Source: an uncultured Gammaproteobacteria bacterium
Lineage (GTDB): Bacteria; Patescibacteriota; Microgenomatia; Daviesbacterales; UBA10151
Reading direction: 5' to 3'
DNA: 64,000 nucleotides
Assembly: GCA_964360965.1 (NCBI GenBank)
Contig: CAYHYM010000003.1
Coordinates: 29 to 64,028 of the forward strand
Positions 2,992-49,175 of the stretch are shown here, in pieces (the stretch's first letter is position 1; the number at the start of each line of letters is the position of its first letter). Made by a program: the position numbers and the translations under genes. The notes below the pieces were generated by a model. That model was not told where the DNA came from and ran no database searches. It worked only from the letters and a program-made list of their open reading frames with translations.

Positions 2992-3525
2992 CTAAAAGTC
3001 AACACCTTTTCTGGCCATGATTCCCTGTTGATACGGATGTTTTATCTGCTTCATTTCTGTTACCAAATCTGCCATGTCAATAAGTTTTTTATGGGCATGA
3101 TGGCCAGTTAAAACCAAATCCAACTGTTGGGGTTTGGCCTTTATTAATTTTACCACATTTGCCAAAGGCAAAACACCAGCAGAATTGGCTCCCACTATCT
3201 CATCTGCTACTATTATATCCCACTTTGGGGATTTTATCTCATTATACAGTATATCAAAAGCCTCTTTGGCTGCCTTTTTGTGTTGTGTAAGAGGAACTTT
3301 ATCTCCCAAAATATTCAAAAACCCCTTGCCTCCTTGAATAATTTTAACCAAAGGTGAAAGTAATTTAGCTCCCACCAACTCCCCGGTAAACCAGGCTTTT
3401 CCAAACTGCACTATTAAACATTTTTTCTTGTACCCCACTGCGCGCAGTACCAATCCCAACGCGGCCGTGGTCTTCCCTTTCCCCTCCCCGGTATATAAAA
3501 TAACTAACCCTTTTTCATCATTCAT
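2992..3525 (-). CDS. cobO: Corrinoid (cob(I)alamin) adenosyltransferase, CobA/CobO/BtuR family
   Basis: 177 aa. P-loop YTGEGKGKTTAALGLVLRAVG and C-terminal LVLTGHHAHKKLIDMADLVTEMKQIKHPYQQGIMARKGVDF align with BtuR (IITGRGCHRDILDLADTVSELRPVKHAFDAGVKAQMGIDY). Confidence 0.8.
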   Translation of the reverse strand: MNDEKGLVILYTGEGKGKTTAALGLVLRAVGYKKKCLIVQFGKAWFTGELVGAKLLSPLVKIIQGGKGFLNILGDKVPLTQHKKAAKEAFDILYNEIKSPKWDIIVADEIVGANSAGVLPLANVVKLIKAKPQQLDLVLTGHHAHKKLIDMADLVTEMKQIKHPYQQGIMARKGVDF

Positions 3526-3561
3526 GCGCCCATTTTACCAAACTGGAAACAAAGCGTATGG

Positions 3562-4310
3562 ACACCCTTGGGGTGTATTCGTATTGACACCTGCGGATAT
3601 TTGAGATATGCTAGGCTCAAATGCCTTCCAGAATTTTCCCCTTTGTAAATGGGCAGTATTACCACATCTATAATAGGGGTGTAGAAAAAAGAACTATCTT
3701 TGAAAAAAGCTGGGACTACTCAAGACTTAAAAAGACAATGCAGTATTATCAGCTTCTCGGCCCTAAGCCAAGGCTATCTAAATTCCTATTAGGCTCAATT
3801 CTCAAGCCAGATACCAATAAGAAGATCGTGGACATTATTTGCTACTGTTTAATGCCAAATCATTTTCACTTTCTTATAAAACAGTTAAAAGAGGGTGGAA
3901 TTACAGAATTTGTTAGTAAATTAAGTAACAGTTATACCAAATATTACAATGTAAAATATAAACGGGTTGGACCCTTACTACAGGGAGAATTTAAAGCTGT
4001 ATTAGTAGAATCTGATGAACAATTGCTACATGTTTCTCGCTATATTCATTTGAACCCGATTGCTTCTTTTTTGGTAAAAGACTTAAATCTCTATGAATGG
4101 TCTTCTTATAAAGAATATACTAATAACCATAAAGGTATTTGTAATACGGAAGAAATTATGGGCTTTTTTAAAGATAGCTCCTCTTATCAAAAATTTTGTT
4201 TGGACCAAGTTGAATATGCCCAAAAACTGGAACTAATTAAGCATCAATTATTGGAAGAAGAATAATACACCCTTGGGGTGTATTTGTATTGACACCTGCG
4301 GATTTTTGAG
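3562..4310 (+). mobile_element. IS200/IS605-like minimal element. A Y1 transposase gene is flanked by ~44-bp imperfect direct repeats, each starting with a small hairpin.
   Basis: Left copy 3562..3606 ACACCCTTGGGGTGTATTCGTATTGACACCTGCGGATATTTGAGA and right copy 4267..4310 ACACCCTTGGGGTGTATTTGTATTGACACCTGCGGATTTTTGAG. Each begins with the palindrome ACACCC-TTG-GGGTGT. Subterminal hairpins in the same orientation at both ends are the hallmark of IS200-family ends. Confidence 0.6.
3621..4265 (+). CDS. tnpA: HUH Y1 tyrosine transposase (IS200-like / RAYT-like TnpA)
   Basis: 214 aa. HuH motif CYCLMPNHFHFLIK, catalytic Tyr region LHVSRYIHLNP, N-terminal YHIYNRG typical of PF01797 Y1_Tnp. It is longer than canonical 140-aa IS200 TnpA, closer to the RAYT-like subgroup. 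Confidence 0.75.
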   Translation: MPSRIFPFVNGQYYHIYNRGVEKRTIFEKSWDYSRLKKTMQYYQLLGPKPRLSKFLLGSILKPDTNKKIVDIICYCLMPNHFHFLIKQLKEGGITEFVSKLSNSYTKYYNVKYKRVGPLLQGEFKAVLVESDEQLLHVSRYIHLNPIASFLVKDLNLYEWSSYKEYTNNHKGICNTEEIMGFFKDSSSYQKFCLDQVEYAQKLELIKHQLLEEE

Positions 4311-4343
4311 AAAATTTGACCGGCACCCTTGAAGGGAAGATAA

Positions 4344-4907
4344 CTATTTAATCAAATTACTAAAGCAGAGCGGGCATAAAAACTTCCTATAGATATTTGA
4401 TTTAGCCATAGTAGCACCTGGATGCATTACACACTTCGGATCTCTGCAGTGAGCACCCTGATCAAATATAGACTTGGCATAGTCATCAAAATGATCCTGA
4501 TTTTTAACTGCCCAATGACCTACTTCATGAACAGTTAAGTTCTTTATCCTACGTTCGTATTCTTTTTTGCTAACTCTTAGAACAGAACTGTCTTCTCCTT
4601 TTAATCCGCGCAGTCTGGCCAATGAAATTATCACACTTTTTGTTTTAGGACTTGAAACCCCATAACAAAAATCCTCTACTGATTTAGGATAAGCAGATAA
4701 GATTTGGTTGCCAGTTACATATACGGTATTAACAACTTTTGCTGGAAAATTAACCCGATAAATTCCAAACTCCTCATCGAACTCTAAAAAATCCTGATGC
4801 TCTTTTTTTCTTACAGATACTTTATATCCGAATATCTTTTTAATTATATCAGCGACTATTAAACCTTCTTTTCTAATATACGGGTCATAATCAACTGATA
4901 ATTTCAC
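4344..4907 (-). CDS. Archaemetzincin-like zinc metallopeptidase (peptidase M54)
   Basis: 187 aa. HEVGHWAVKNQDHFDDYAKSIFDQGAHCRDPKCVMHPGATMAKSNIYRKFLCPLC matches the HExxHxxGxxH...C...CxM...CxxC archaemetzincin signature. Confidence 0.7.
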   Translation of the reverse strand: MKLSVDYDPYIRKEGLIVADIIKKIFGYKVSVRKKEHQDFLEFDEEFGIYRVNFPAKVVNTVYVTGNQILSAYPKSVEDFCYGVSSPKTKSVIISLARLRGLKGEDSSVLRVSKKEYERRIKNLTVHEVGHWAVKNQDHFDDYAKSIFDQGAHCRDPKCVMHPGATMAKSNIYRKFLCPLCFSNLIK

Positions 4908-8042: not shown

Positions 8043-10934
8043 GTGAAATTGCTGCCCCTTTTAATTTTTCTATTCACTTTTATTACGCTTCCCTCCCCAA
8101 TCTATGCTGTCACCATTGCTGAGCAAACCCAAAACTTTGGAAATCAGCTAAATGTCTGGCAGGCAATTCAAGAGCTGGGCAGCTTGCTTGATGGCAAGGC
8201 CGGTTCCTTTACTTTCAGGGTACGTACCACTAAGACCAACCTTGAAATGTTTGATTATACTGCTCAAAATACCAAGATTTATGATAAGGACACAAACACC
8301 AAAGTTGCCAACGGCTGCCACACAGGTTCTGCCTCTGATCCTTTGGGTGGCTTGACCTTTACCACAGCCGGGGTACCTGTTGGTTTTGAAGACGTGACAA
8401 TTGATTTTTCATCCTGTAACTCTTACTCCTTCACTCAAGGACATAAATATTTAATTATTATAAGTAATGCCAATATGGCACAATTTGGTGGAAGTTTAAT
8501 CTATTTTGCAGCCGCTGCTTACGGGTCAAGCAGCACTGACCATTTTAATGGTGGGGGTTTAAGGTATGCTTTTGATAATAAATTTTGCAACCCAATCACT
8601 TACCAATGGAATTCTTCAATAAGTAATGCAAATGAAGACCAATGTAATATTTGGACCACACCCAAAGATGACCTTTATTTTATTTTAGCCAACACCTCCC
8701 CTCCTCCCAAAACCCCGGTTATTTTTATACCCGGGATAGGGGGGTCTGAATTTAAAGCAGGGCAGGATATTATCTGGGCAGATCAGGATGATGGACATGG
8801 AGGAAAGTTTTCTCATGCTTATACATCTGGGGAGAAAATTTGGGTCAATGAGGGTAAGGCGGCCGAACTGGGGGAGGATGATTATTTTGATGTATTAAGA
8901 TTAAAATCTGATGGAGTAACTTCTGAGGCTTCTCTAAGTTTAACAGGAGATCTGACTTCTTTTGGTTATGGGGATATTGATTCATTTTTTACCGGATTGG
9001 GGTATGAGAAAGGTAAAAATTTCTTTGTTTTTCCCTATGATTGGAGAAAGGATGTGAGAGTTACCAAAGATAGTTTGGATGCCTTAATTGAGGAGGCAAA
9101 AACCAAATCAGGACAAACTAAGGTTAATCTAGTGGCCCATTCCATGGGAGGCTTGGTAGCCAGATATTATATTGCTGATTCAGGGAGAGCTTCTAAGGTT
9201 AATAAGCTAATTTCTATGGGAGTTCCCCATTTGGGAGCAACAAAAGCTTTGAAAACCCTAATGTATGGAGATGAAATAAAGAAGGATGTATTTGGTATAT
9301 TTGCACTAGGAATCCCATCAAGTGAGGTCAAAGACGTATTCCAAAATCTCCCCAGCGCATTCCAGCTTTTACCTTCCAAAAAATTTTATGATTTCTATGA
9401 CAACTCTGCTCAGAAACCTTTCCCGTTTAGCGACGAAAGAGATATTGACAGTAACAAAGTTACTGGAGCACTAAACTTTATTCAAATCAAAGGATTGCTG
9501 GAAAATTTAATACACAATATGACAGTATTTGACTTTGGAGAACAACTTCATAATTTAGCTGATCCATTACTTAATCAATCTTCAACAGTCAAGTTGTATA
9601 ACATAGCTGGTACCAGCCAACCTACTTTAGGACAAATCAGGGAAACGTGGTTAATACAGTGGCCTATTAATTTAATCTCTATAAGAGACGAGGTCTTTAT
9701 TAACGGAGACAATACAGTGCCGCTCTATAGTGCCTCACTTAAAAGTGATTCTTTAGATTTTTCAGGCAGTGCAACTATTTATTATGTGGAACAAAAACAC
9801 AGTGATCTGGTTTCAAAAGATGGCACAGCTATGCAAACAGTAAAGTCTATTTTAGAAGAATCTGATTTACCTGTTGAGGTTAAATCCGAAAAGATTGATT
9901 TGGAAGGACAGCATGTGTCTTTGGATGATGGGGAATTGGAATTGTATGATGATGAAGGAAAACATACTGGCATAAAAGATGACGGAGAAATTGAAACCAA
10001 TATTCCTGAAACTTTTTATTCAACATCAGGTAAAACTAAACATGCTTTTGTTAAAAAGAAAGCTAAAAAAGTGAAAGTGAGGGCTACTCGAAAAAAGAAA
10101 ACCTCATCAGATCCCAAAACAACCAATCTAAAAATTAGAAGTTATAAACAGGATAAGGTTTCTAAAACCACAATTTATAGAGATGTCTTAATTGCTGAAA
10201 CAGCCAAAGTTGAATTTGATCTGGATCCAGCAATTGATACTTCTCCAACCCTTGCATTATTTCCTGATTCCACCAAATCTGACAGCACAAATATTAATCT
10301 CACTAGTGAGGTATCAGGTGGTCCTGCCTTAGACCAAACATCACCTTCTACAAAGATAGAACTATCAGGAAGTAAAGATTCATTAGGCAAGTTTATATCC
10401 TCTGCCACAGTAACCTTAAGTTCCTCTGATTCTGAATCGGGAATTTTAAAAACAGAATATAGTTTGGATAATGGTAAGACTGTTCAAACGTACAGTAATC
10501 CATTCACTGTCTCAACTCCTGGTAAAACTACTTTACAGGTAAAGTCTATTGATAAATTAGGTAATGAGGAAATACCACAAGAAAAGGTCATAGAGATTGC
10601 TTCATCAACTTCTAGCTCATCTTCTTCCAGCTCATCTGGCAATAACTCATCAAGCACTGCACAATCCACCTCTGAGGAGTCCGTTCCGGTCACCTCCGAG
10701 GTGTTACGAAGTGACTCCTCGGAGGTGGATAGCACAAGCTCATCACAAGATATCCTGGGACTTAGCACCCAAAATCCAGTTTCATCTGCTCAATTAAAAC
10801 CTCTAACTAACAACCAACCTAATCTACTAACAAGCAGTATGTTGATCTTAACAATGTTTATGGCCCAAAGCGGAATAATTCTTTTGTCATCCTTAAGATC
10901 AGTTCTTTCTTTTCTTAAACCAACCCCAAAATAG
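8043..10934 (+). CDS. Large secreted, C-terminally membrane-anchored alpha/beta-hydrolase (lipase/LCAT-like) with Ser-rich low-complexity linker
   Basis: 963 aa, GTG start. Signal peptide MKLLPLLIFLFTFITLPSPIYA, PVIFIPGIGGSEF oxyanion region, nucleophile elbow VAHSMGGLVARYY, Lys-rich segment, poly-Ser stretch and C-terminal hydrophobic anchor LLTSSMLILTMFMAQSGIILLSSL. Confidence 0.6.
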   Translation: MKLLPLLIFLFTFITLPSPIYAVTIAEQTQNFGNQLNVWQAIQELGSLLDGKAGSFTFRVRTTKTNLEMFDYTAQNTKIYDKDTNTKVANGCHTGSASDPLGGLTFTTAGVPVGFEDVTIDFSSCNSYSFTQGHKYLIIISNANMAQFGGSLIYFAAAAYGSSSTDHFNGGGLRYAFDNKFCNPITYQWNSSISNANEDQCNIWTTPKDDLYFILANTSPPPKTPVIFIPGIGGSEFKAGQDIIWADQDDGHGGKFSHAYTSGEKIWVNEGKAAELGEDDYFDVLRLKSDGVTSEASLSLTGDLTSFGYGDIDSFFTGLGYEKGKNFFVFPYDWRKDVRVTKDSLDALIEEAKTKSGQTKVNLVAHSMGGLVARYYIADSGRASKVNKLISMGVPHLGATKALKTLMYGDEIKKDVFGIFALGIPSSEVKDVFQNLPSAFQLLPSKKFYDFYDNSAQKPFPFSDERDIDSNKVTGALNFIQIKGLLENLIHNMTVFDFGEQLHNLADPLLNQSSTVKLYNIAGTSQPTLGQIRETWLIQWPINLISIRDEVFINGDNTVPLYSASLKSDSLDFSGSATIYYVEQKHSDLVSKDGTAMQTVKSILEESDLPVEVKSEKIDLEGQHVSLDDGELELYDDEGKHTGIKDDGEIETNIPETFYSTSGKTKHAFVKKKAKKVKVRATRKKKTSSDPKTTNLKIRSYKQDKVSKTTIYRDVLIAETAKVEFDLDPAIDTSPTLALFPDSTKSDSTNINLTSEVSGGPALDQTSPSTKIELSGSKDSLGKFISSATVTLSSSDSESGILKTEYSLDNGKTVQTYSNPFTVSTPGKTTLQVKSIDKLGNEEIPQEKVIEIASSTSSSSSSSSSGNNSSSTAQSTSEESVPVTSEVLRSDSSEVDSTSSSQDILGLSTQNPVSSAQLKPLTNNQPNLLTSSMLILTMFMAQSGIILLSSLRSVLSFLKPTPK
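10691..10728. repeat. Family-A GC-rich palindromic module (CACCTCCGAGG-N15-CCTCGGAGGTG) inserted in-frame in the Ser-rich region of the lipase-like CDS
   Basis: 11-bp stem, 15-nt loop. Encodes VTSEVLRSDSSEVDS. The same arm sequences recur at 37955, 40767, 49149 and 54015. Confidence 0.6.
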
Positions 10935-14557: not shown

Positions 14558-17161
14558 GTGGAAAAGGCATATACAAAAACCGCTGAGCAAGTTATTAAAG
14601 ATCTAAAAACTGATCTTAAAGACGGGCTGACATCAGCCCAAGCCCAAAAAAGATTAGCACAATATGGCCCAAATGTCTTAAAAGAAGAGATCGGTAAAAA
14701 TCCTTTGCTGATTTTATTTTCCCAGTTCAGAAGCTTTTTGGTGATTATTTTAATAGTTGCCTCCATCATCTCATATCTGTTGGGTCATAGCCTTGACGCC
14801 TTGATGATTTTGGCCATTGTCGCAATTAATGCTGTCTTAGGCTTTATTCAAGAATATCGGGCAGAGGAATCCATCAAACATCTGAAAAAACTGGTCACTG
14901 CCAATGTCCAGGTGATCAGAGATGGCCGGTTAGTAGAGATTCCCCACTTTCAACTGGTACCAGGAGATTTGGTAATTGTAAGTGACGGCCAAAAAGTCCC
15001 GGCTGATTTAAGAGTAACACAATCCATCTATCTGCACCTTAATGAAGCACCACTGACCGGAGAATCAATTCCTGTCACCAAAGTAACAGACAGCTTACCC
15101 CCCAACACCAACATAGCTGATCAAAAAAATATGCTTTTTGCAGGCACCTCAGTCTCTTCTGGCAAGGGTATGGGGATAGTTGTATCAACAGCTATGAAAA
15201 CAGAAATTGGCCAAATTGCCCATCTGGTATCACAAGAGGTGGAACCAGAAACCCCCCTCAAACAAAAGCTGGATCGTTTGGGCAAACTTTTGGGCAGAAT
15301 TGTTTTAATCGTCGCCTCCTTAATTGCCCTGGAACAAATAATATTGGGTGAACCAGTTATTGAAGCTCTCATCTCATCAGTGGCCTTGGCAGTAGCAGCC
15401 ATACCAGAAGGCTTGCCTGCCATTGTCACCATCTCTTTGGCTTTGGGCACCAAAAGGCTTCTTAAACAACGTGCCTTAATCAGAAATTTGCCTGCCTCAG
15501 AAACCTTAGGATCAACAGAGGTAATATGTGTAGACAAAACTGGCACCCTAACAGAAGGAGAAATGTCTGTGAGAGAGATTTACGGCGCAAATATTCAAAA
15601 AATTCTCACTGTGGGGATACTTTCAAGCAATGCCAGAAAAAATAAAGACAGAATTATTGGAGATGCCACTGAGGCAGCTTTAATACAAAAGGCCATAGAT
15701 TCAGGACTGGATCAGGATCAATTGGATAAAAAATTTCCTCGAGTACAAGAAATACCCTTTTCTTCAGACAGAAAAATGATGACCACCATCTGCAAAGAGG
15801 ATAATCAATACCGGGTGACCAGCAAAGGTGCAACCGAAGTCATCTTGGACAAATGTTCACATATTGAGGAGAATGGCCAGGTTATACCATTAACTGAGGA
15901 GAAAAAAGAACAGATTTTAAAAGTTAATGACCAAATGGCCCAAGATGCCTTGAGGATTTTGGCTTTTGCCGAGAAGCGCATACACCTTGCAGGTGAAGAA
16001 AATGCAGTTACACCTGCGAGGTGGAAAGAAGAAGAGATAGAAAAAGATCTGATCTTTCTAGGCCTTCAGGGAATGATGGATCCACCAAGGGAAGGTGTTA
16101 AAGAGGCTATTGAGGTTTGTCAAAGAAAAGCAGGAATTAAAGTAATAATGATCACCGGAGATCACCTGTTAACTGCCCAATCCATTGCCAAAGAAATTGG
16201 TATCAAGGGGGAGAGCATCAGCGGTCAAGAGCTTGACAATCTTTCTGAAGAAGAATTTGTCAAAAAAGTTCAGGAAATTAACATCTATGCCAGGGTCAGC
16301 CCCACTCATAAAATTAGGATCATCAAGGCCCTAAAAGCCCGCGGTCATCAGGTGGCCATGACAGGTGATGGGGTCAATGATGCTCCGGCCTTAAAGGCTG
16401 CTGATACTGGGGTGGCCATGGGGGTTACGGGCACCGACGTGGCCAAAGATGCCTCAGATATAATTTTACTGGATGATAATTTCACCACCATTGTGCAAGC
16501 CATAAAAGAAGGAAGGACAATTTTTGACAACATCAGAAAATTTGTTAATTACCTGTTATCTTCAAACATTATGGAAATAATGGTGATATCTTTGGCTGTA
16601 ATTTTGGGTGGGGGACATTTGCCGCTTTTACCTATTCATCTTTTATGGATCAATCTGGTCACTGATGGGCTGCCGGCCCTGGCTTTGGGAGTTGATCCGC
16701 CCAGAGCAGACATCATGAGTTTACCGCCCCAAAATTTTAGGCAGCAGATATTGGGTGGTAGATCTTTAGGGCCTTTAACTGCCGTCAGTGTACTTTTAAC
16801 CATAGCTATCCTTGCTATTTTCTTTATCTATCAAAAAGATCCAATTTATGAACAAACCATGGTTTTTACATCCATTGTCTTTTATGAAATGTTAAGAATT
16901 ATTGCCATAAGGTCTGAATATAAACTGCCGTTTTTCTCAAATAAATTCTTAATCCTTGCTATAGCTGGATCATTAGCACTGCATCTTGTGATTCTTTATC
17001 TACCATTCTCTTTTGCAGGAGTAACATTGCAAGAATTATTTAAAGTTCAGCCGTTAAATCTTTTTGACTGGGTACTACTGCTTGGAATTGGCATCTTCCT
17101 TCTATTTATCATGAGAATCTTGGTCATTACACCTGTATTTAATTTTTTAAAAAAGCCTTGA
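14558..17161 (+). CDS. P-type cation-transporting ATPase, type IIA (Ca2+/SERCA-like)
   Basis: 867 aa. DKTGTLT, PEGLPA, TGDGVNDAPAL, 10 TM segments. Carries an in-frame palindromic insertion at 15983..16023. Confidence 0.9.
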   Translation: MEKAYTKTAEQVIKDLKTDLKDGLTSAQAQKRLAQYGPNVLKEEIGKNPLLILFSQFRSFLVIILIVASIISYLLGHSLDALMILAIVAINAVLGFIQEYRAEESIKHLKKLVTANVQVIRDGRLVEIPHFQLVPGDLVIVSDGQKVPADLRVTQSIYLHLNEAPLTGESIPVTKVTDSLPPNTNIADQKNMLFAGTSVSSGKGMGIVVSTAMKTEIGQIAHLVSQEVEPETPLKQKLDRLGKLLGRIVLIVASLIALEQIILGEPVIEALISSVALAVAAIPEGLPAIVTISLALGTKRLLKQRALIRNLPASETLGSTEVICVDKTGTLTEGEMSVREIYGANIQKILTVGILSSNARKNKDRIIGDATEAALIQKAIDSGLDQDQLDKKFPRVQEIPFSSDRKMMTTICKEDNQYRVTSKGATEVILDKCSHIEENGQVIPLTEEKKEQILKVNDQMAQDALRILAFAEKRIHLAGEENAVTPARWKEEEIEKDLIFLGLQGMMDPPREGVKEAIEVCQRKAGIKVIMITGDHLLTAQSIAKEIGIKGESISGQELDNLSEEEFVKKVQEINIYARVSPTHKIRIIKALKARGHQVAMTGDGVNDAPALKAADTGVAMGVTGTDVAKDASDIILLDDNFTTIVQAIKEGRTIFDNIRKFVNYLLSSNIMEIMVISLAVILGGGHLPLLPIHLLWINLVTDGLPALALGVDPPRADIMSLPPQNFRQQILGGRSLGPLTAVSVLLTIAILAIFFIYQKDPIYEQTMVFTSIVFYEMLRIIAIRSEYKLPFFSNKFLILAIAGSLALHLVILYLPFSFAGVTLQELFKVQPLNLFDWVLLLGIGIFLLFIMRILVITPVFNFLKKP
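15983..16023. repeat. Family-B 41-bp hairpin module (CACCTYGCAGGTG-AAGAAAATGCAGTTA-CACCTGCGAGGTG) inserted in-frame in the P-type ATPase CDS
   Basis: 13-bp perfect stem with 15-nt loop. 35 nt are identical to the intergenic copy at 40403..40443. Encodes RIHLAGEENAVTPARW in the cytoplasmic domain. Confidence 0.7.
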
Positions 17162-18112: not shown

Positions 18113-19157
18113 GGTGTGCCTCCGCAGCCGGGCTTTGTTTTTTCCGCTTCAATAAATAATTATATGCAGCCAAGGCAGCCCTTACCCCATCACCTGCAGA
18201 AATATTATTTTGTTTATAAGGATCATTGGTGACGTCCCCACAAGCAAAAACCCCGGGATGGGAGGTGGTGGCATGTTGAAAATTCACCATGATTTGTCCA
18301 TGGTCATCAATTTGTACCAAATCTTTAACCATCTCAGAGTTAGGAACTGAGCCTATTTCCACAAATATCCCGCCCACTTCCAAAGTCTTTTCTTCTGCAC
18401 TTCCACTCCCGATGTGGGATTGAGCTGACACATCGGGAGTGTGTATTCGGTATTTGAGCCCGGTTACCAATGCTTCCCCCACCACTTCCACAGTTTGGGC
18501 ATTAAGAATAATTTGTCTAAGTTTGGGGTTTTTCTTGATTTCCTCAATAGTTGCCGGATCAGCTCTTAAGATCTCACCCCTCTCCATCAGGTAAATTTCT
18601 GATGCATAGGGAAAAAGGTCCTGTACTGCCTCGAGTCCGGCATTTCCTCCACCAACAACTGCCACCTTTTTATCGCGAAAAAGGGGAGCATCGCATGTTG
18701 AGCAATATACCACACCCCTACCTTCAAACTTATCCTCCCCTGGAATGCCTAGTTTCCTACGTCTGGCACCTGAGGCCACAATGACGGTTTTCCCCTGATA
18801 TACTTGTCCTGAGCCTGTCGAAGGATCTGTAGTCACCTCAAAATCACAGATCCTCCCAGCAGACACCTCGGATGGTGTGGACTCAGTAGACCTGCATGCA
18901 ACAGATTTTACCTTCACCACCTTTTCTGTTTTTATATCAACAATATCTGGATAAGCTCTAACATGAGCTTCCAGTTTTTTAGCTAAATTGAGTCCAGAAA
19001 TATGTACCTCTCCTATCCAGTTTTGAATATCATCTGAGACAATTGACTGCCCGCCAAAAGATTCTGTAATAAGGAGAGTTTTCATCTGCTTTCTTGCCGC
19101 ATAAACAGCAGCAGCACAAGCTGCAGGTCCTCCACCAATGATAATTACGTCATACAT
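18102..19157 (-). CDS. trxB: Thioredoxin-disulfide reductase carrying two in-frame palindromic insertions
   Basis: 351 aa. FAD site IIGGGPAACAAAVYAAR, redox-active YCSTCD, NAD(P) site VAVVGGGNAGLE. It is ~40 aa longer than typical TrxB because of insertions at 18405..18440 and 18801..18824. Confidence 0.8.
   Translation of the reverse strand: MYDVIIIGGGPAACAAAVYAARKQMKTLLITESFGGQSIVSDDIQNWIGEVHISGLNLAKKLEAHVRAYPDIVDIKTEKVVKVKSVACRSTESTPSEVSAGRICDFEVTTDPSTGSGQVYQGKTVIVASGARRRKLGIPGEDKFEGRGVVYCSTCDAPLFRDKKVAVVGGGNAGLEAVQDLFPYASEIYLMERGEILRADPATIEEIKKNPKLRQIILNAQTVEVVGEALVTGLKYRIHTPDVSAQSHIGSGSAEEKTLEVGGIFVEIGSVPNSEMVKDLVQIDDHGQIMVNFQHATTSHPGVFACGDVTNDPYKQNNISAGDGVRAALAAYNYLLKRKKQSPAAEAHHGA
18405..18440. 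repeat. Family-D hairpin module (ACTCCCGATGTG-N12-CACATCGGGAGT) in-frame in trxB
   Basis: 12-bp perfect stem. Encodes SAQSHIGSGSAEE. A near-identical copy at 20492..20528 sits in an unrelated aldolase gene and encodes HTQSHIGSGTTKA. Confidence 0.7.
18801..18824. repeat. Family-E module (TACTTGTMCTGAGCYTGTCGAAG) in-frame in trxB
   Basis: Encodes DPSTGSGQV. Related copies lie at 24398..24429 (cop[11 protein letters not shown]) and 47781..47806 (DUF3048 protein, STSSVQV). Confidence 0.6.
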
Positions 19158-19159: not shown

Positions 19160-20119
19160 TTATACCTTAACAGGAGTAAGTGGAGGTTGTCCAGATAAAA
19201 CCGCAATTATATTTTTGGCTGCCAATTCTCCCATGGCTGAACGGGCTTCTATTGTTGCAGAAGCAATATGAGGAGTTAGAATCACATTTTCTAAATCCAC
19301 CATACCAGCAGCCCATTTAGGTTCTGTTTCACCCACATCTAAAGCTGATCCGGCAATGACTTTATTTTTCAAGGCTTCGACAAGCTCAGCCTCATCAACC
19401 ACAGGACCACGGGAAGTATTGACCAGATAGGCCGTGGATTTCATCATCTTCAGATGCTCGGCGTTAATTAAATGTCTTGTAGAATCAAGTAGGGGGACGT
19501 GAATTGAAACCACATCTGATGTGGAAAGTAGTTCTTCAGGTGTTGCTTTAAAGACTGCTCCCACCTTAGTTTCAAAATCCGGATTTTGTTTAACATCGTA
19601 ATAGATCACATTCATACCAAAACTTTTCCCAATCTCAGCCACCCTTGAACCAATCCTGCCGAGTCCTAAAACCCCCAAGGTTTTATCTTTAAGTTCCATC
19701 CCCAACATGACTTCCGGACCAAACTGCGCAGACTCTGTAAGAGCCAATTTATGGGCTTCAACAACTCTTCTTGAGATTGCCATTATCAGTGCAAATGTAT
19801 GTTCAGCAACAGCCTCTGTTAACACATCCGGGGTGTTGGTGACCACAATACTTCGCGACAAAAGGGCGGGGAGGTCTAAATTATCTGTACCTACAGCGTA
19901 ATTGGCAACTATTTTTAAATTAGCCCCAGCAGCGTTAATAAACTCCTGATCCACCTTATCAGTCAACATGCTCAACACCCCATCTGCACCCTGTATAAAA
20001 TTCAAAAGTTCCTGTCTTTCCAAAGGCCGATCATGTGGTGAAACCACCACTTCATACCCAGCATCCTGCAACATCTTTATCCCACTGCCGGGAATTTTTC
20101 TGGTAACTACAACTTTCAT
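19160..20119 (-). CDS. D-isomer-specific 2-hydroxyacid dehydrogenase (glycerate/phosphoglycerate dehydrogenase-like)
   Basis: 319 aa. NAD-binding GLGRIGSRVAEIGKSFGMNVIYYD, catalytic His region. SD GGAGGTG lies 7 nt upstream. Confidence 0.85.
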   Translation of the reverse strand: MKVVVTRKIPGSGIKMLQDAGYEVVVSPHDRPLERQELLNFIQGADGVLSMLTDKVDQEFINAAGANLKIVANYAVGTDNLDLPALLSRSIVVTNTPDVLTEAVAEHTFALIMAISRRVVEAHKLALTESAQFGPEVMLGMELKDKTLGVLGLGRIGSRVAEIGKSFGMNVIYYDVKQNPDFETKVGAVFKATPEELLSTSDVVSIHVPLLDSTRHLINAEHLKMMKSTAYLVNTSRGPVVDEAELVEALKNKVIAGSALDVGETEPKWAAGMVDLENVILTPHIASATIEARSAMGELAAKNIIAVLSGQPPLTPVKV

Positions 20120-20143
20120 CTTCTTCCACCTCCGAGGTGTTTT

Positions 20144-20989
20144 CTAATCCATCATAACAACTTCTGTTAAAACTTTAAATCTTTCTGGTAAGGTTTTTGT
20201 TAAAAACTGTTGTTTTTCTTCCCCTTGCAAACTGCAAACCTCCTGCCACAGCGCCCTTCCTGCTAAAAAGCCTTTGGCCCCTGCTTTTATTGCAACTTTC
20301 AAATTTTCTTTAAAAACCTCAAAACTATCTCCTCCTGTAAGTAAAATCCATGGAGTATCACCTACCATATTGGTAATTTCCACGCATACATCCAAATCAC
20401 CCGGATATTCCAACTTCCACACATCTGGAACTATCCTAACCTCCTTAAAAATTTTCACTGACTCGATCACCAACCCTGCTTTAGTGGTCCCACTCCCGAT
20501 GTGAGATTGAGTATGCACATCGGGAGTGTACGTGACAATTTCTAAAAAAAATGGGAAATCATGAATCTTACAATCCTCTAAAACTTTCCTGGCAGTTTCC
20601 AGCTGTTTTTTTGCACTTTCTAAGTTTGGATTAAAATAAATCAAAAGTTTGGCCCCAGAAGCCCCCAGCTCTTTTAACTGCCCAACTATGTATTCCAACT
20701 CCGTAATTCTTTCTCCAGCCTGGTTAACGTATCCGCTTTTTTCTAAAGGTAATAAAAATGGTTTTGTTTGGCAAGCTTCTTTACATGCCTCTATGCCATA
20801 GTGTTCATCAATCAACAGTCCTGAAACTTGACCTGCTAAAGCATTGATAATTTCTGATTTCAGGGAAACAACAGTCTCATCAGAAACACTATCAGCATCC
20901 TGTGGATTTATTAATTTCTTAAATGATCCCCTATGGTCCAAAGCCAACATCAAAAATTTGCCATCAGATGTAAACTTACTTAAATCCAT
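20144..20989 (-). CDS. Class I aldolase of the tagatose-bisphosphate aldolase (LacD)/DhnA-like family
   Basis: 281 aa. N-terminal GKFLMLALDHRGSFKKL resembles LacD ALAFDQRG. Carries Family-D insertion 20492..20528. Confidence 0.55.
   Translation of the reverse strand: MDLSKFTSDGKFLMLALDHRGSFKKLINPQDADSVSDETVVSLKSEIINALAGQVSGLLIDEHYGIEACKEACQTKPFLLPLEKSGYVNQAGERITELEYIVGQLKELGASGAKLLIYFNPNLESAKKQLETARKVLEDCKIHDFPFFLEIVTYTPDVHTQSHIGSGTTKAGLVIESVKIFKEVRIVPDVWKLEYPGDLDVCVEITNMVGDTPWILLTGGDSFEVFKENLKVAIKAGAKGFLAGRALWQEVCSLQGEEKQQFLTKTLPERFKVLTEVVMMD
20492..20528. repeat. Family-D hairpin module copy, in-frame in the aldolase gene
   Basis: ACTCCCGATGTG-AGATTGAGTATG-CACATCGGGAGTG. Same stem as 18405..18440; the loop differs at 4 positions. 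Confidence 0.7.
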
Positions 20990-25910: not shown

Positions 25911-25939
25911 ACTATATCCCCCGGTAGGGGATATGTCAA
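25911..25939 (-). promoter_or_regulatory. Copper-operon promoter with a CsoR-type GC-rich palindromic operator filling the spacer
   Basis: Read on the minus strand: TTGACA (25939..25934), a 17-bp spacer containing the palindrome ATATCCCC-CGGTA-GGGGATAT (25914..25934), TATAGT (25916..25911), then csoR ATG at 25901. The G/C-tract inverted repeat resembles known CsoR operators. Confidence 0.55.
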
Positions 25940-29280: not shown

Positions 29281-29630
29281 TTGTCATCCCCGCGCAGGCG
29301 GGGATCCATTTAAATGACCTGACTATATAAATCAGACCATTCTGGATTAAACTTATTAATTAGCTTCATCTTCCAGTATCTTTTCCATTTCTTCATTTGT
29401 TTCTCTCTCAATATAGCATCATTAATATTCTGATGCTGTTCATAATACACCAGTTCATGTACTCCATATTTTTCAGTAAATCCCTTCACTAAATTATTTT
29501 TATGTTCCCAAACCCTTCTTACCAAATTATCTGTTACTCCTATGTAAAAAGTCCCGTTTTTTCCGCTAGCCAGTATATAAACATAATATTCCATTTGTTA
29601 AGTGGATTCCTGCTTTCGCAGGAATGACAA
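29281..29630. mobile_element. GIY-YIG nuclease cassette bounded by ~27-bp hairpin-containing inverted repeats
   Basis: Left end 29281..29307 TGTCATCCCCGCGCAGGCGGGGATCCA. Right end 29603..29630 reverse-complements to TTGTCATTCCTGCGAAAGCAGGAATCCA. Each end is itself an 8-bp-stem hairpin. The element occupies exactly the gap between the tktN stop and the DinB-like start. Confidence 0.5.
29310..29594 (-). CDS. Stand-alone GIY-YIG nuclease-family protein
   Basis: 94 aa. MEYYVYILASGKNGTFYIGVTDNLVRRVWEH...KYGVHELVYYE has GIY/YIG and the conserved Arg/Glu. Confidence 0.8.
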   Translation of the reverse strand: MEYYVYILASGKNGTFYIGVTDNLVRRVWEHKNNLVKGFTEKYGVHELVYYEQHQNINDAILREKQMKKWKRYWKMKLINKFNPEWSDLYSQVI

Positions 29631-33509: not shown

Positions 33510-34883
33510 TCACTCGGGGAATTTGCGAAGAAAAAAGCCCACTGCTCTTAATCTTACCATAGTTTCCTCTTCTCCCAAAATTTTAATGCTTTCAAATAAG
33601 GGTGGAGTAACAGTTTGTCCTGAAATGGCTACTCTGATTAACTGAAAAGTTTGAGTAGCAGATAAACCATGTTCTTCGCCAAATTGCCTAAATCTCTTTT
33701 CAAAATCATCAGGACTCCAAGGTCTTTTCATTTTTTCCAGAGTTTCCAGTATACCTCGCATAATACTTTTTAAATCTTGAGATTCTTCGCGGAGTTTACA
33801 CTGAGCGAAGCGAATGTGCTCAGAATGACGTACGAGGATCTTTTTAAAAACATCCTTTTTATATTCCGGTTTTTCAAAAAGAAAATCAGTCAGTGGCACA
33901 AAATCAGATAACTTTTTAATCCTCTCTTTTATTAAAGGGACAACTGGTGCAATTTTTTCCTTATTGGGATGACCCGCTTCGTCTGCGTAGCGAGGCGAGT
34001 CTACCAAGAACTCCTGCAGTCTTTGGGTTAACTCTTTATCAGACATCGCTCTTATATACTCCCCATTCATCCACTCCAATTTAGTTAAATCAAAAACTGC
34101 TGCTGAGCTGTTAATATCTTTGATCTTAAAAAGTGAAGTCATCTCTTCTAAACTTAATAACTCCTTAGCTTGTGGTGGCATCCATCCTAAAAGTGCCAAA
34201 AAGTTAACCAAGGCTTCTGGCAAAAATCCATCTTTTTTAAAATCTAACACCCCAATGCTGCCGTGTCTTTTGGATAGTTTACTTCTGTCTGTTGCTAAAA
34301 TATTGGGAAAATGTCCAAATTGGGGTAAAGCCCAGCCAAAGGCTTGATAAAGCATAATGTGCTTGGGGGTTGATGAAATCCAGTCTTCGCCTCGAAGTAC
34401 ATGAGAGATATCCATTAAATGATCATCCACCACACTGGCCAAATGATAAGTAGGGAAACCATCAGATTTTAAAATTACAAAATCCTCCTGAATACTATTG
34501 TCAAACTCAATTTTCTTATTTCCCACTAAATCTATCCAGGAAGTTTTACCGCTCTTTGGGGTTTTGAAATAGATAGCTTCATCTTGCTCATAGCTTAAGT
34601 CTTTATCCACCAGTTTTTTTGCATGCTCTTTATAAAAAGAGAGTCGTTCAGATTGTAAGATCGGACCTTCATCCCAATTAAGCTTTAACCATTTTAAACT
34701 CTCATAAATTGCTTCATAACTTTCCCTGACCTCTCTTTTTTTATCAGTATCTTCAACCCGTAAGATAAACTTACCATTTTGGCTTTTGGCAAAAAGAAAA
34801 TCAAACAAAGCAGTTCTAATATTGCCTACATGTGGATTACCGGTTGGTGACGGAGCAAATCTAACCCTGATCATAGTGTCCAT
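33510..34883 (-). CDS. gltX: Glutamyl-tRNA synthetase
   Basis: Start placed at MDTMIRVRFAPSPTGNPHVGNIRTALF (HIGH-class motif); the track ORF extends further to 34982. KLSKRHG (KMSKS). Carries GC-rich in-frame modules at 33801..33823 and 33973..33999. Confidence 0.9.
   Translation of the reverse strand: MDTMIRVRFAPSPTGNPHVGNIRTALFDFLFAKSQNGKFILRVEDTDKKREVRESYEAIYESLKWLKLNWDEGPILQSERLSFYKEHAKKLVDKDLSYEQDEAIYFKTPKSGKTSWIDLVGNKKIEFDNSIQEDFVILKSDGFPTYHLASVVDDHLMDISHVLRGEDWISSTPKHIMLYQAFGWALPQFGHFPNILATDRSKLSKRHGSIGVLDFKKDGFLPEALVNFLALLGWMPPQAKELLSLEEMTSLFKIKDINSSAAVFDLTKLEWMNGEYIRAMSDKELTQRLQEFLVDSPRYADEAGHPNKEKIAPVVPLIKERIKKLSDFVPLTDFLFEKPEYKKDVFKKILVRHSEHIRFAQCKLREESQDLKSIMRGILETLEKMKRPWSPDDFEKRFRQFGEEHGLSATQTFQLIRVAISGQTVTPPLFESIKILGEEETMVRLRAVGFFLRKFPE
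33973..33999. repeat. Family-C module (CCCGCTTCG...GCGAGGCGAG) in-frame in gltX
   Basis: GACCCGCTTCGTCTGCGTAGCGAGGCGAGTCTACC encodes SPRYADEAGH. The related copy in miaA (54029..54050) encodes SPRCEAGH. A second gltX module at 33801..33823 is CTGAGC-GAAGCGAATGTG-GCTCAG. Confidence 0.55.
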
Positions 34884-34917
34884 ATTATATCTTCGATTTC
34901 TGTATAATAGAAGGGGT

Positions 34918-35907
34918 ATGACTCTAACTGCCGTTGCCAGAATAACACGCTGGACACTTTTTTTTATTATCATATTTTCCATCCTTTCTTTGGGTGGGTT
35001 TGCGGCCTATCGGATATGGTATAACAATTACCTAACATCCCTTCCTTTGGTTGAAGAAAAACCAGATACTAAATTTGGAATACTGCCATATCCTGATTTT
35101 AAAAAAAGTGATGTTTCTTCCTCCAATTTTTCCTACTCGCTGGATACTGTAACAGGAGGCTTACCAGCTTTTGAAAAAATTATCAAAGTTTATTTTATTC
35201 CCAAATCATATGTCAGCTTTCTTGCCCCGGAAAAAGCTGAAAGTTTGGCCCGGCAATTTGAGTTAGATACACAACCTGAAATTTTATCCGAAACCAAATA
35301 CATATTTAAAAAAAATGACAAGAGTTTAACTTTAGATACTGACAGCGGAAATTTTATTTTTGAGAGGGAAGCAACAGCAGCAGCTCGAGCACCTGCGGAT
35401 GATGAACAAAAGCTGATCCAAGATTTTAAAAATTTACTGGAAAAACAGCAGCTACTTTCGGAAGAGTTAAAAAAAGGGCCACATAAAATTAAATATCTGG
35501 AGGATCAAACAATGGATATTTCTCTTTGGCAGGAAAATATTGAGGATAAACCAATAGCCAACCCCACTTTTATCCATTCTTTAGTCAGGGCAAAAGTGCT
35601 GGGATCCGCATTGGATATTAAAAATTATTTATCTTTAAATTATACCTGGTGGAAGGTTGATAAAAATACTTTTGCCACATATCCAATAAAAACAGCTCAG
35701 CAAGCATATGAAGATTTAAAATCAGGCAAAGCCTCCATTGTAATAAACCCTTCTCAACCTCAAGTTTCCATCACTTCAGTATACCTTGGATATTATCTTA
35801 GTGAAAATTACACTCCCTATCTGATGCCAATCTTTATTTTTGAAGGACCTTCCTTTGTGGCATATGTACCAGCTATTTCCGGACAATTTATTGAGCAGGC
35901 CAGATAA
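34918..35907 (+). CDS. Hypothetical membrane-anchored/exported protein
   Basis: Start placed at MTLTAVARITRWTLFFIIIFSILSLGGFAAY (SD GAAGGGG upstream); the track ORF starts at 34786. Divergent from gltX with a 34-bp gap. Confidence 0.5.
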   Translation: MTLTAVARITRWTLFFIIIFSILSLGGFAAYRIWYNNYLTSLPLVEEKPDTKFGILPYPDFKKSDVSSSNFSYSLDTVTGGLPAFEKIIKVYFIPKSYVSFLAPEKAESLARQFELDTQPEILSETKYIFKKNDKSLTLDTDSGNFIFEREATAAARAPADDEQKLIQDFKNLLEKQQLLSEELKKGPHKIKYLEDQTMDISLWQENIEDKPIANPTFIHSLVRAKVLGSALDIKNYLSLNYTWWKVDKNTFATYPIKTAQQAYEDLKSGKASIVINPSQPQVSITSVYLGYYLSENYTPYLMPIFIFEGPSFVAYVPAISGQFIEQAR

Positions 35908-40402: not shown

Positions 40403-40443
40403 CACCTCGCAGGTGAAGAAAATGCAGTTACACCTGCGAGGTG
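40403..40443. repeat. Family-B 41-bp hairpin module, intergenic copy (5' UTR of recJ, upstream of cca)
   Basis: CACCTCGCAGGTG-AAGAAAATGCAGTTA-CACCTGCGAGGTG. On the recJ mRNA the 3' arm GAGGTG lies 8 nt before the recJ ATG, so the SD is sequestered in the stem. Identical over 35 nt to 15983..16023. Confidence 0.7.
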
Positions 40444-40493: not shown

Positions 40494-41906
40494 ATGAACT
40501 ACTCATTACCTAACGAGGTTAAAAATATTTTAGAAAAGTTTAAAAAAGCCAAATTTCAAATTTATATTGTGGGAGGAGCTGTCCGTGATCTTTTAATGGA
40601 AAAAGGGGTTAAAGATTGGGATTTCACCACTGATGCCAAACCGGAGGAGATTATAAAATTATTTCCGGAAGGTTTTTACGATAACAAATTTGGAACAGTA
40701 GGAATTCCTATAGAAGTGGGAAAAGACACTTTGGATGGTGGCAGGCTGAAGCGAAGCGTAATCCATGACTCCTCCGAGGTGGAAGTATATGAAATCACCA
40801 CCATGCGAAAGGAAGGAGTATACAAGGATTACAGACACCCAGACAAAGTGGCATGGACAGATAAAATTGAACAAGATCTAGGCAGACGTGACTTTACTGT
40901 TAATGCCATTGCCCTTTCCGTCATCCCGACAAATGTCGGGATCCAATTAACAGATCCATTTAATGGCCAGCAGGATATGAAGGATAAGATAATCAAAGCC
41001 GTGGGTGATCCTGGCAAAAGATTTCAAGAAGATGCTCTTCGTTTAATAAGAGCAATCAGAATTGCCACCCAGTTAGAATTTGACATAGATGAAAAAACTT
41101 ATTCTGCCATCAAAAAAAATGCTCATCTTTTAAAAGAAGTTTCCCGGGAAAGAATTCGTGATGAGCTCTTTAAAATACTTGCATCTGGCAATCCTCACTC
41201 CGGTATAGTGAAATTGAGAGAAACAGGCTTACTACAAATAATCTTACCCGAACTTGAAAGATGTTTTGGCATTGTCCAGGAAGGACCCAAACATGATAGA
41301 GTTTATGATATTGGAAACCATTCCCTGCTCACTCTTCAACATACACCGTCTACTGATCCGTTAACCAGATTTGCAGCACTTTTGCATGATATTGGCAAAC
41401 CGGACACTGTTAACACTGCTCAAGATGGCAATGTCACTTTTTACCATCATGATGTGATTGGTGGAAAATTGATTTTAAAAATTGGGAAAAAGTTTAATTT
41501 ATCGAAAAAGCAAAAAGATAAATTATACCGCTTAGTGAGATGGCACTTATTTACTGTTGATGAAAATCAAACAGACTCTGCCATCAGAAGATTTATAAAA
41601 AATGTGGGGTTAGATTATATAGAAGATATGATGGCATTACGTATTGGAGACAGATTGGGAGGAGGGACCCAAAAAGCTGTCTCTTGGAGAATGGAAAAAT
41701 TCGCTGATCGAATAAAACAAGTCCTTAAAAAACCATTCTCTATTTCTGATCTAAAAGTAAATGGCCATGATGTAATGGAAGTTTTAAAAATCAAACCAGG
41801 CCCCAAGGTTGGTGAAATCCTCCAAAAACTTTTTGAAGAAGTCCTAGAAGATTCATCTAAAAATAATCGGAATTATCTTATTGATAGAATGAAGGAACTT
41901 GGTTAG
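40494..41906 (+). CDS. cca: CCA-adding tRNA nucleotidyltransferase with HD domain
   Basis: Start at MNYSLPNEVKNILEKFKKAKFQIYIVGGAVRDLLM; the track ORF starts at 40395 inside the hairpin. PolyA_pol head GGAVRD, D..D, HD domain LLHDIGKP. Carries a Family-A/C composite in-frame module at 40748..40782 (GRLKRSVIHDSSEVEV). Confidence 0.85.
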   Translation: MNYSLPNEVKNILEKFKKAKFQIYIVGGAVRDLLMEKGVKDWDFTTDAKPEEIIKLFPEGFYDNKFGTVGIPIEVGKDTLDGGRLKRSVIHDSSEVEVYEITTMRKEGVYKDYRHPDKVAWTDKIEQDLGRRDFTVNAIALSVIPTNVGIQLTDPFNGQQDMKDKIIKAVGDPGKRFQEDALRLIRAIRIATQLEFDIDEKTYSAIKKNAHLLKEVSRERIRDELFKILASGNPHSGIVKLRETGLLQIILPELERCFGIVQEGPKHDRVYDIGNHSLLTLQHTPSTDPLTRFAALLHDIGKPDTVNTAQDGNVTFYHHDVIGGKLILKIGKKFNLSKKQKDKLYRLVRWHLFTVDENQTDSAIRRFIKNVGLDYIEDMMALRIGDRLGGGTQKAVSWRMEKFADRIKQVLKKPFSISDLKVNGHDVMEVLKIKPGPKVGEILQKLFEEVLEDSSKNNRNYLIDRMKELG

Positions 41907-49129: not shown

Positions 49130-49175
49130 TCAATCAAGTAAAATTTAACACCTCGGAGGTGGACTCTAACTCCTA

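Follow-up and report, generated by a model that had tools for sequence, protein, structure and literature searches.

The window considered here, the whole 64-kb stretch of DNA from contig CAYHYM010000003.1 of a Daviesbacteria-type bacterium of the candidate phyla radiation (CPR), codes near its left end for a Y1 HUH endonuclease that is set between two copies of a hairpin-bearing direct repeat. We consider it probable that gene and repeats together make up a REPtron/TIRtron-like cassette around a domesticated class-2 Y1 HUH enzyme of the RAYT/TnpAREP-TIRYT type (RAYTs being the tyrosine transposases associated with repetitive extragenic palindromic (REP) sequences), and not an IS200 insertion sequence (IS). 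The enzyme is intact and conserved, has the fold and motifs of RAYTs and occupies a fixed locus; its non-coding flanks are under selection, the left (L) and right (R) hairpins are alike and locus-specific throughout the family, and hairpins of their class are dispersed in low copy number. A link between the cassette and the palindromic modules of the window is plausible and of an indirect kind. The locus comprises:

3562-3606, plus strand: left copy of the direct repeat (hairpin H and motif M), 45 nt
3562-3576: left hairpin H, ACACCC-TTG-GGGTGT, with a 6-bp stem and a 3-nt loop, its centre 52 nt 5' of the ATG
3584-3598, plus strand: left motif M, TTGACACCTGCGGAT, the first 6 nt of which are a perfect -35 hexamer
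3607-3612, plus strand: -10-like hexamer TATGCT, 8 nt 5' of the ATG and kept in orthologues
3621-4265, plus strand: gene for the class-2 RAYT/TIRYT-like Y1 HUH endonuclease, 214 aa, ATG start
4264-4284: right hairpin H, AATACACCC-TTG-GGGTGTATT, with a stem extended to 9 bp, terminator-like on the minus strand
4267-4311, plus strand: right copy of the direct repeat (H and M), starting 2 nt past the stop codon
4289-4303, plus strand: right motif M, TTGACACCTGCGGAT, without a downstream gene on the plus strand
4323-4340, plus strand: CACCCTTG (5' arm and loop of H) followed by AAGGGAAG, in the right flank

The preliminary description of this locus had recognized an intact 214-residue Y1 HUH enzyme, which is borne out by a match to the Pfam profile Y1_Tnp (PF01797; E 1.1e-8, 35.7 bits against a cut-off of 23), by the HUH motif N80-H81-F82-H83 (H81-F-H83 being coded at 3861-3869) and by the tyrosine motif Y141-I-H-L-N145-P146, whose catalytic Y141 is coded at 4041-4043. 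Further conserved elements are a W160-S-S motif in the tail and the pair L120-Q121, which is FQ in several homologues; in an alignment of 21 homologues H81, H83, Y141, N145, Q121/G122 and W160-S-S are invariant. Searches recovered about 8,000 relatives from a collection of 5.8 billion proteins, the best 120 of which are 66-90% identical over their full length, span 212-227 aa and, where their source is named, come from Candidatus Daviesbacteria or Patescibacteria. The decay to a pseudogene in relatives that the same description had reckoned with is not what is found: 83 of 85 family open reading frames (ORFs) are intact, all 83 retaining the HUH motif and 82 of them carrying Y..xN[PS], and the ratio of nonsynonymous to synonymous substitution (dN/dS) between the window gene and its orthologues is 0.05-0.07, with synonymous sites saturated (proportion of synonymous differences, pS, 0.61-0.84). 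In two loci a second, partial Y1-like frame is seen, namely at 3445-3942 of L082 (minus strand, head-to-head with the main gene, 42% identical over residues 32-192) and at 6119-6235 of L064 (a C-terminal fragment 1.5 kb downstream of the main gene); both are possibly decayed paralogues.

Fold comparison was needed because sequence searches of the PDB returned only marginal matches (E about 0.2), to the ISDra2 TnpA as well as to TnpAREP. With an AlphaFold (AF2) model (mean predicted local distance difference test score (pLDDT) 80.9, predicted template-modelling score 0.80), Foldseek retrieved the Escherichia coli TnpAREP-REP complex as the best match in the PDB (4ER8; E 3.6e-6, TMt 0.65), with the IS608, ISDra2 and IS200 transposases ranked behind it, and a profile alignment to 4ER8 reaches from the HUH motif to the W-x-S tail. 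IS200 transposases have a Y-x3-Q motif, are about 150 aa long and occur in copies that are about 99% identical, while class 2 is characterized by Y-x3-NP and a low copy number (Quentin et al. 2018). Of the two kinds of organization to which the locus had at first been likened, that of RAYTs therefore stands, and that of a mobile IS200 element falls on account of the Y-x3-NP motif, the 4ER8-like fold, the fixed site and paralogues that are only 48-69% identical. Within class 2 the motif set NHFH, L/F-Q, YIHLNP and SS tail matches subclass 2.1 (Quentin et al. 2018, Table 1), which is Group 1 of Bertels et al. 2017 and corresponds roughly to the TIRYTs of Di Nocera et al. Residues 163-213 of the model form a helical tail with no domain assignment, the last approximately 15 residues having low pLDDT (65, 56), and at E<=1 Pfam gave no match besides Y1_Tnp, including none to the C-terminal helix-turn-helix (HTH) domains Bac_DnaA_C, HTH_23 and HTH_28.

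The gene order Lon-CobA-[Y1]-(variable small ORF)-RNR-NrdR, in which the Y1 gene is flanked by a CobA/BtuR-like gene and a class-II ribonucleotide reductase (RNR) gene, is found with the same site and orientation in 17 other Daviesbacteria-type genomes, and the 18 syntenic genomes show no presence/absence polymorphism of the cassette. Identities across the 17 genomes are 61-90% for Y1, 55-81% for CobA and 58-79% for Lon. The window contains one Y1 gene, a member of a large CPR/Microgenomates family; several genomes have 2-4 paralogues with a mutual identity of only 48-69%. A scan of metagenomes anchored on CobA-like genes used back-translated patterns of too little specificity (of 80 loci, 78 came from distant non-CPR genomes, and none had Y1), so that it served as a background control and yielded one informative empty site, L085. 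In this more distant relative (CobA 66%, Lon 72%) NrdR-RNR-CobA-Lon are contiguous on one strand with no Y1 gene, 4 nt separate the stop codon of RNR from the ATG of CobA (9961-9970) and no hairpin of the class occurs within 20.5 kb. The common site in 17 genomes together with the empty site of L085 therefore points to a single entry followed by vertical inheritance. From the order in L085 it also appears that the Y1 cassette split what looks like an operon; expression of CobA-Lon must now come from a divergent region of about 95 nt held in common with the Y1 promoter.

The direct repeats had been described as 44 bp long and as beginning with the hairpin ACACCC-TTG-GGGTGT; the repeat and its hairpin are real, and the length is 45 nt. 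The two copies are 43/45 identical (2 mismatches) at a spacing of 705 nt, and only the palindromic core is inverted within a repeat that is itself direct. Solo copies of the repeat, which the preliminary description had thought worth seeking, are not found within the 64 kb: the 37-nt core occurs exactly twice, at the two flanks (0.00 expected from shuffles), and ACACCC-N3-GGGTGT is confined to the same two places (0.02 expected). H is the centroid structure of both flanks when folded (z = -4.4 for the right copy), and in the window no sequence 5' of H pairs with sequence 3' of H beyond the stem, unlike in a second large group of relatives (type-B loci), where TTTAGCTT/AAGCTAAA lengthen the stem. 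The region 3300-4600 has no match in Rfam. The right hairpin is placed between convergent genes, namely the Y1 gene and ORF 4344-4907. The sequence at 4323-4340 is a candidate half-hairpin copy or a decayed third hairpin; at the corresponding place the orthologues L006, L014, L015 and L020 have CACCCTTGGGGTGGAAAGCTA. An additional CACCTGCGGAT at 35390, within ORF 34786-35907, probably matches by chance.

These hairpins are a property of the family as a whole. When the 160 nt upstream of each gene were compared with the 200 nt downstream, flank-repeat scores of at least 26 were reached by 72% of 83 Y1 genes as against 3% of 354 other ORFs from the same loci; around each relative at most 8.6 kb of sequence was covered, and in the source genome the 64-kb window. 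Under strict criteria one and the same short GC hairpin brackets the gene in 58/83 loci, a number that inspection by eye raises. In generic form it reads xCACC[T/C]-N3-[A/G]GGTGx, with a nearly invariant CACC/GGTG core and with covariation of paired positions, the innermost T-A alternating with C-G and pairs 6 and 7 C-G with A-T. As the selection of best-pair hairpins inflates the pairing statistics of the inner stem, these statements on covariation and on the equality of L and R rest on the outer pairs, on controls and on comparison between loci. Within a locus, L and R agree at 14.4/15 positions of their 15-nt cores as against 10.4/15 between loci, each paralogue has its own hairpin variant (in JAUSHL01 CCACCCcggGGGTGG, ATATCACACCCcaaGGGTGTGATAT, ATATCCAACCcccgaGGTTGGATAT and CAACATCGGGGattgaCCCCGATGTTG), and the more alike two proteins are, the more alike their hairpins tend to be (Mantel r = 0.30, 0/2000 permutations). 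In L013 the stem has become AACCC/GGGTT by a compensatory change common to L and R. Hairpins of the class reach 5.9 copies/kb at Y1 flanks, 0.36 copies/kb in other intergenic DNA, 0.08 copies/kb in coding DNA and about 0.03 copies/kb in unrelated genomes or shuffles; the flanks are thus 63-fold denser than elsewhere and 16.6-fold denser than other intergenic DNA.

The arrangement of the flanks differs across the 58 scored loci. Direct flanks are seen in 36, mostly with proteins at least 55% identical to that of the window, and an inverted R copy of L in 21, mostly from distant clades; in the latter, AGGAGAGGTGCCAA-N6-H mirrors H-N6-TTGACACCTCCTCTT, which is the TIRtron arrangement. The hairpin centre falls at -49 to -52 in 30/58 family loci. 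Among 116 flanking hairpins, 10 have one arm together with 5-15 nt of outside flank tandemly duplicated (L027, L042, L015, L035, L031, L049, L050, L053, L051 and L067), the inner breakpoint lying no more than 2 nt from the loop centre in 11/11 cases, and the whole hairpin is never duplicated. These half-hairpin duplications may be the footprint of cleavage in the loop; polymerase slippage at the hairpin is an alternative.

In the clade of the window H is followed after 7 nt by M (TTGACACCTGCGGAT). Nearly all orthologues carry the combination at L; at R it is seen in the window, L003, L004, L006, L007 and L011, the R copy being rearranged in L035 and decayed in L001; M occurs 16 times in L flanks, 6 times in R flanks and 3 times elsewhere. 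Between genomes with saturated synonymous sites, no more than 2-9 of the 47 nt of H+M are different, at R as well as L, and both copies are therefore under selection. One stem change, A-T to C-G (columns 7/21; ACACCC/GGGTGT versus CCACCC/GGGTGG), is common to L and R in every genome. The left copy also has the marks of a promoter: TTGACA (3584-3589) and TATGCT (3607-3612), 17 nt apart, agree with the sigma-70 consensus at 10/12 positions and end 8 nt 5' of the ATG, from which we infer a leaderless or nearly leaderless mRNA. In the type-B loci the hairpin itself lies in the TTGACA/TAAACT spacer, with its centre 25-27 nt 5' of the ATG. Both window hairpins are terminator-like. In IS200 the hairpin at the left end also terminates transcription and so shields tnpA, and the hairpin here probably has a regulatory side as well. 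In L019 a solo H+M unit faces into the 3' end of the convergent gene Lon; another, interrupted, is found in L064.

The window as a whole has 11 CACC-N5-GGTG hairpins against 0.46 expected, 9 of them besides those of the gene. The commonest, CACCTCCGAGGTG, has four copies (10691, 20127, 49149 and 54015):

10691-10703, plus strand: CACCTCCGAGGTG hairpin, a candidate cognate solo site inside ORF 8043-10934
20127-20139, plus strand: CACCTCCGAGGTG hairpin, intergenic, with its minus-strand GGAGGTG arm 7 nt before the ATG at 20119
49149-49161, minus strand: CACCTCCGAGGTG hairpin, intergenic, in reverse orientation
54014-54028, minus strand: hairpin CCACCTCCGAGGTGG, inside ORF 53608-54633, a 15-mer identical to the flanking hairpin of L009

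The preliminary description held that the flanking hairpin differs from the dispersed families and that any link is purely hypothetical, which was too pessimistic: both belong to one CACC-N5-GGTG class, and CACCTCCGAGGTG is the exact hairpin that flanks syntenic orthologues (L009 on both sides, L019 on the left and L020 on the right). The functional link to the palindromes that it suggested is thus better founded, if still indirect, in view of class kinship, of CACCTCCGAGGTG and of the shared ACACCTGCG (see below), and does not extend to the gene's own exact hairpin, which is not dispersed within the 64 kb. The copy at 10691 is enclosed in a 67-nt nested palindrome (10664-10730; an 18-bp outer stem around CACCTCCGAGGTG, -22.8 kcal/mol, z -5.7) within the Ser-rich C-terminal part of the 963-aa alpha/beta-hydrolase-like ORF 8043-10934. 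The 5' arm of CACCTCCGAGGTG is equal in sequence to the 3' end of 16S rRNA (the anti-Shine-Dalgarno (SD) sequence) and the 3' arm to an SD sequence, and the hairpin at 20127 may sequester or supply the ribosome-binding site of ORF 19160-20119 (minus strand). Elsewhere in the family, some loci have further, solo copies of the hairpin by which they are flanked, at a distance of 1-4 kb: L053 (two), L035, L059, L070 and L013. The flanking hairpin of L031 is met again some 125 kb along its contig, in L018, where it forms an inverted doublet; the chance expectation is about 0.001 per 15-mer in 705 kb of locus sequence.

Inverted doublets are also found in the window, whose modules fold as hairpins of 13-18 bp (z -4.6 to -7.1). 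A 41-nt REPIN-like doublet, CACCTYGCAGGTG-N15-CACCTGCGAGGTG, is present at 15983-16023 and 40403-40443 (98% identical, 13-bp stem) and has ACACCTGCG in common with motif M, in the second half of the 45-nt repeat. The first copy keeps the reading frame of the P-type ATPase gene that contains it (ORF 14558-17161), to which it adds HLAGEENAVTPARW before the conserved LIFLGL; the second is intergenic, with its GAGGTG arm 6 nt before the ATG at 40450. A second family, CACTCCCGATGTG-N14-CACATCGGGAGTG (18403-18442 and 20490-20529; 88% identical), is in frame in two unrelated genes, for an AhpF/TrxR-like reductase and a DeoC/LacD-family aldolase, and gives nearly the same peptide in both (HTPDVSAQSHIGSG, YTPDVHTQSHIGSG), the alignment to PDB 1fl2 being gapped at exactly that spot. 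CACATCGGGAGTG also appears in the sequences that flank the L065 and L083 types of paralogue; the doublets at 18403 and 20490 are more likely to have been served by another paralogue, past or present. Separate from these modules are intergenic hairpins of the form AT(T/C)CC...GG(A/G)AT (e.g. ATTCCTGCTTTCGCAGGAAT), at 25914-25934, 29286-29305, 29606-29625 and 40923-40942. Another Daviesbacteria genome has close relatives of them in L053, L055 and L057. Such hairpins could be terminators or make up a repeat family of their own.

TnpAREP binds folded single-stranded DNA (ssDNA) hairpins of REP sequences, cleaves and rejoins them via a phosphotyrosine intermediate, and is a low-copy, vertically inherited protein; an in vitro assay of cleavage and strand transfer is available (Corneloup et al. 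2021). By analogy, ssDNA binding and cleavage, autoregulation and an action of this paralogue on the dispersed hairpins of the window would be expected of the present enzyme. The cassette would have entered the RNR-CobA junction once, in the ancestor of the Daviesbacteria clade, and have been inherited vertically since, with the H and M flanks most likely serving as the cognate ssDNA binding and cleavage sites of the enzyme. In such a scheme the invariant CACC/GGTG stem would be the signature recognized by the family, the outer pairs and the loop would provide the paralogue-specific determinants, and M would probably be recognized too. The enzyme would nick and rejoin at H, occasionally seeding or removing solo hairpins and doublets, and members of the family may thereby spread or maintain the class hairpins, as singlets, inverted doublets and some in-frame insertions, by analogy with TnpAREP. 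Aberrant nicking and rejoining in the hairpin loop, where rolling-circle Rep proteins cut, would leave half-hairpin duplications. Since the left copy overlaps a sigma-70-type promoter, binding of the enzyme there might keep its own expression low. The part of mobilizer, for which the enzyme had been named a candidate, would thus be a putative one.

Several observations weigh against this interpretation. The sole NCBIfam match, REP_Tyr_transpos (NF047646), scores 47.8 bits, below the cut-off of 80. A guide tetranucleotide, which the preliminary description expected for Y1 cleavage, is absent in its RAYT form GT[AG]G (GTAG or GTGG) from the 5' foot of the hairpin in the window and in its relatives, the 5' contexts being GTATGG/AATAAT in the window and TATGT, ACTTC and TAGCTTGA in relatives. 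The gene's own hairpin, ACACCCTTGGGGTGT, occurs within the 64 kb at its two flanks only, so that REP-like amplification of this exact sequence has no support there, and some window modules have their matches in hairpins beside other types of paralogue (L065, L083). In the closest clade the mean L-R mismatch (4.2/47) is no different from the L-L mismatch between genomes (4.3/47), and concerted evolution of L and R in this clade rests mainly on the one compensatory base pair. With M and TATGCT forming a good sigma-70 promoter and H being terminator-like, the conservation of the flanks may in part be purely regulatory. With L-R mismatches equal to the L-L value, the closest clade gives no support to strong gene conversion between its two flanks; the exceptions are L003 and L004, whose L and R are 100% identical over 46 and 42 nt. 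Apart from these two, the equality of L and R is a family-wide signal and not one of recent homogenization.

Three other explanations of the locus can be set against a domesticated RAYT-type cassette. It is highly improbable that the locus is an active IS of the IS200/IS605 family, with the hairpins as subterminal left and right ends and the 705-nt unit moving as an ssDNA circle, and this proposal can be regarded as largely refuted already. The two hairpins do lie on the same strand, directly repeated and near the ends of a Y1-only unit as in IS608 and IS200, the IS608 and ISDra2 transposases are among the fold matches, and 13 nt separate the end of the right hairpin of L001 from the stop of the neighbouring gene, a spacing like that of the right end of IS608. 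However, the metal-ligand residue at Y+4 is the Asn of a class-2 Y-x3-NP motif where IS200 has Y-x3-Q; the protein has 214 aa with a 65-aa tail as against a core of about 150 aa, and tnpB is missing. Moreover, there is one copy in 64 kb, at a site common to 17 other genomes with saturated dS, and paralogues within a genome are 48-69% identical where about 99% is reported for IS200 copies. A resident excisable cassette, in which a circle of about 700 nt with one H+M was integrated by Y1-mediated exchange at a chromosomal H+M, would make the repeats hybrid junctions and the solo H+M units empty sites or excision scars. This would suit a repeat that starts 1-2 nt past the stop codon or includes the last codons and so has the look of a monomer with terminal redundancy, the fully identical repeats of 46 and 42 nt in L003 and L004, the very existence of solo H+M units, and the half-hairpin tandem duplications that always break in the loop. 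Yet no circular or tandem form is seen, the 18 syntenic genomes show no presence/absence polymorphism, the only empty site (L085) is devoid of any H+M, and L-R identity in the closest clade does not exceed that between genomes, all of which makes it very unlikely.

The flanks could also be ordinary expression signals unrelated to catalytic specificity, i.e. a portable promoter-plus-hairpin and a bidirectional terminator, with the hairpins as a general regulatory device such as terminators or SD-sequestering stems. The TTGACA-17-TATGCT promoter with its 10/12 consensus positions, the terminator-like character of both hairpins with the right one between convergent genes, and the type-B hairpin in the TTGACA/TAAACT spacer are all as such an account would have it; so are two solo window hairpins that place GGAGGTG or GAGGTG 6-7 nt before a start codon, and the enrichment of the class in other intergenic DNA too (0.36/kb). 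Nevertheless, we regard it as unlikely. The Y1 flanks are 16.6-fold denser in these hairpins than the other intergenic DNA, and L and R are identical and locus-specific while paralogues differ. The R copy of M is conserved with no gene following it on that strand, and the solo H+M of L019 is aimed into a convergent gene at its 3' end. In roughly one locus out of three R is an inverted copy of L, which a promoter or terminator does not predict, and modules are also found in frame inside genes.

The domesticated RAYT-type cassette thus preferred may be compared with known systems. RAYT/TnpAREP REPtrons are similar in their HUH and Y-x3-N-P motifs and provide the best structural match (4ER8); they are likewise of low copy number, vertically inherited and under purifying selection, have the gene between short GC-rich hairpins whose class is dispersed as singlets and inverted doublets, and include several divergent paralogues per genome, each with its own hairpin type. 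In contrast to them, the present system lacks a 5' GT[AG]G guide, scores below the NCBIfam RAYT cut-off, has dispersed copies that by extrapolation number tens per genome at most and not hundreds, has direct hairpin plus 15-nt motif repeats in place of inverted REPs, with the hairpin within the promoter of the gene, and is hosted by a CPR bacterium. The TIRYT/TIRtron systems (subclass 2.1) provide the best match in motifs (NH[YF]H, FQ-type, Y[IV]HLNP and SS tail), and resemblance extends to a protein that exceeds the core length by a C-terminal tail, to the TIR-like (terminal inverted repeat) flanks of distant family members in which R is an inverted copy of L, to the 3' arm of the hairpin (GGGGTGTA/GGGGTGGA), which agrees with the TIR consensus GGGGWSAS at 6/8 positions, and to the only moderate abundance of the flanking repeat families. 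Unlike TIRYTs, the protein here has no Bac_DnaA_C or HTH Pfam domain in its tail and has 214 aa as against a median of 238; and whereas no REP-like structures were reported beside subclass 2.1 genes (Quentin et al. 2018), in at least 58/83 loci here the gene stands between two clear hairpins, those of the window clade being direct. With the IS200/IS605 elements IS608, ISDra2 and IS200 the system has in common the Y1 HUH fold, subterminal same-strand hairpins at both ends and, in the case of IS200, a terminator-like left hairpin, but IS200 is multi-copy and mobile whereas the cassette is confined to a single site and vertically inherited.

The dispersed modules have counterparts of their own. 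Rickettsia palindromic elements are found as in-frame insertions in protein-coding genes, and the window doublets of 41-42 nt are similarly in frame, adding about 14 residues in surface loops. Intragenic REPs in frame have also been described (Di Nocera et al. 2013), as have REP insertions of subclass 2.4 (Quentin et al. 2018). The sequences and the host phylum are different here, and the mobilizing enzyme is putative in the Rickettsia case as well as in the present one.

Among mobile DNAs maintained through vertical descent, REPIN-RAYT systems are the prime example, and they are known mainly from Proteobacteria and Cyanobacteria; literature searches pairing CPR or Daviesbacteria with REP or transposases brought up no paper on such a system, and the RAYT/REPIN papers found in our search never mention Patescibacteria. 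New here are the CPR host, the direct hairpin-plus-motif repeats and the lack of a GTAG guide. The largest Y1 subclass (2.1, or Group 1) has been reported to be without hairpins, and the present clade of CPR proteins, which is 2.1-like, has cognate hairpins that co-vary with it; its streamlined genomes have several such pairs of paralogue and hairpin apiece, and palindromic modules stand in frame in housekeeping genes. This raises the question why genomes under strong reduction keep such enzymes. A wider proposal, which we advance only tentatively and hold to be doubtful as a whole, would join these points into an undescribed multi-paralogue RAYT-type branch in Microgenomates (CPR) genomes of less than 1 Mb, with private hairpin families, promoter-embedded hairpins, cutting in the loop and in-frame doublets in essential genes, where the direct H+M repeats would mark a cassette still exchanging strands between its ends. 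A 214-aa protein with a substrate of 15-45 nt would be a compact, sequence-defined system for hairpin recognition and cutting, and for annotation the results imply that 'transposase' calls in CPR genomes, in their thousands, do not stand for insertion sequences.

Among the neighbouring genes, the small ORF between the Y1 and RNR genes (4344-4907, minus strand, 187 aa) has an HEVGH (HExxH) motif and is without a Pfam match; PADLOC has no match for either this ORF or the Y1 protein. Its slot is variable in orthologous loci, being vacant in L001 and occupied by unrelated ORFs of 143 and 149 aa in L003 and L004. The RNR gene of L004 (5228-8648) contains an intein bearing a LAGLIDADG domain, and the RNR of the window (861 aa) is free of an intein.

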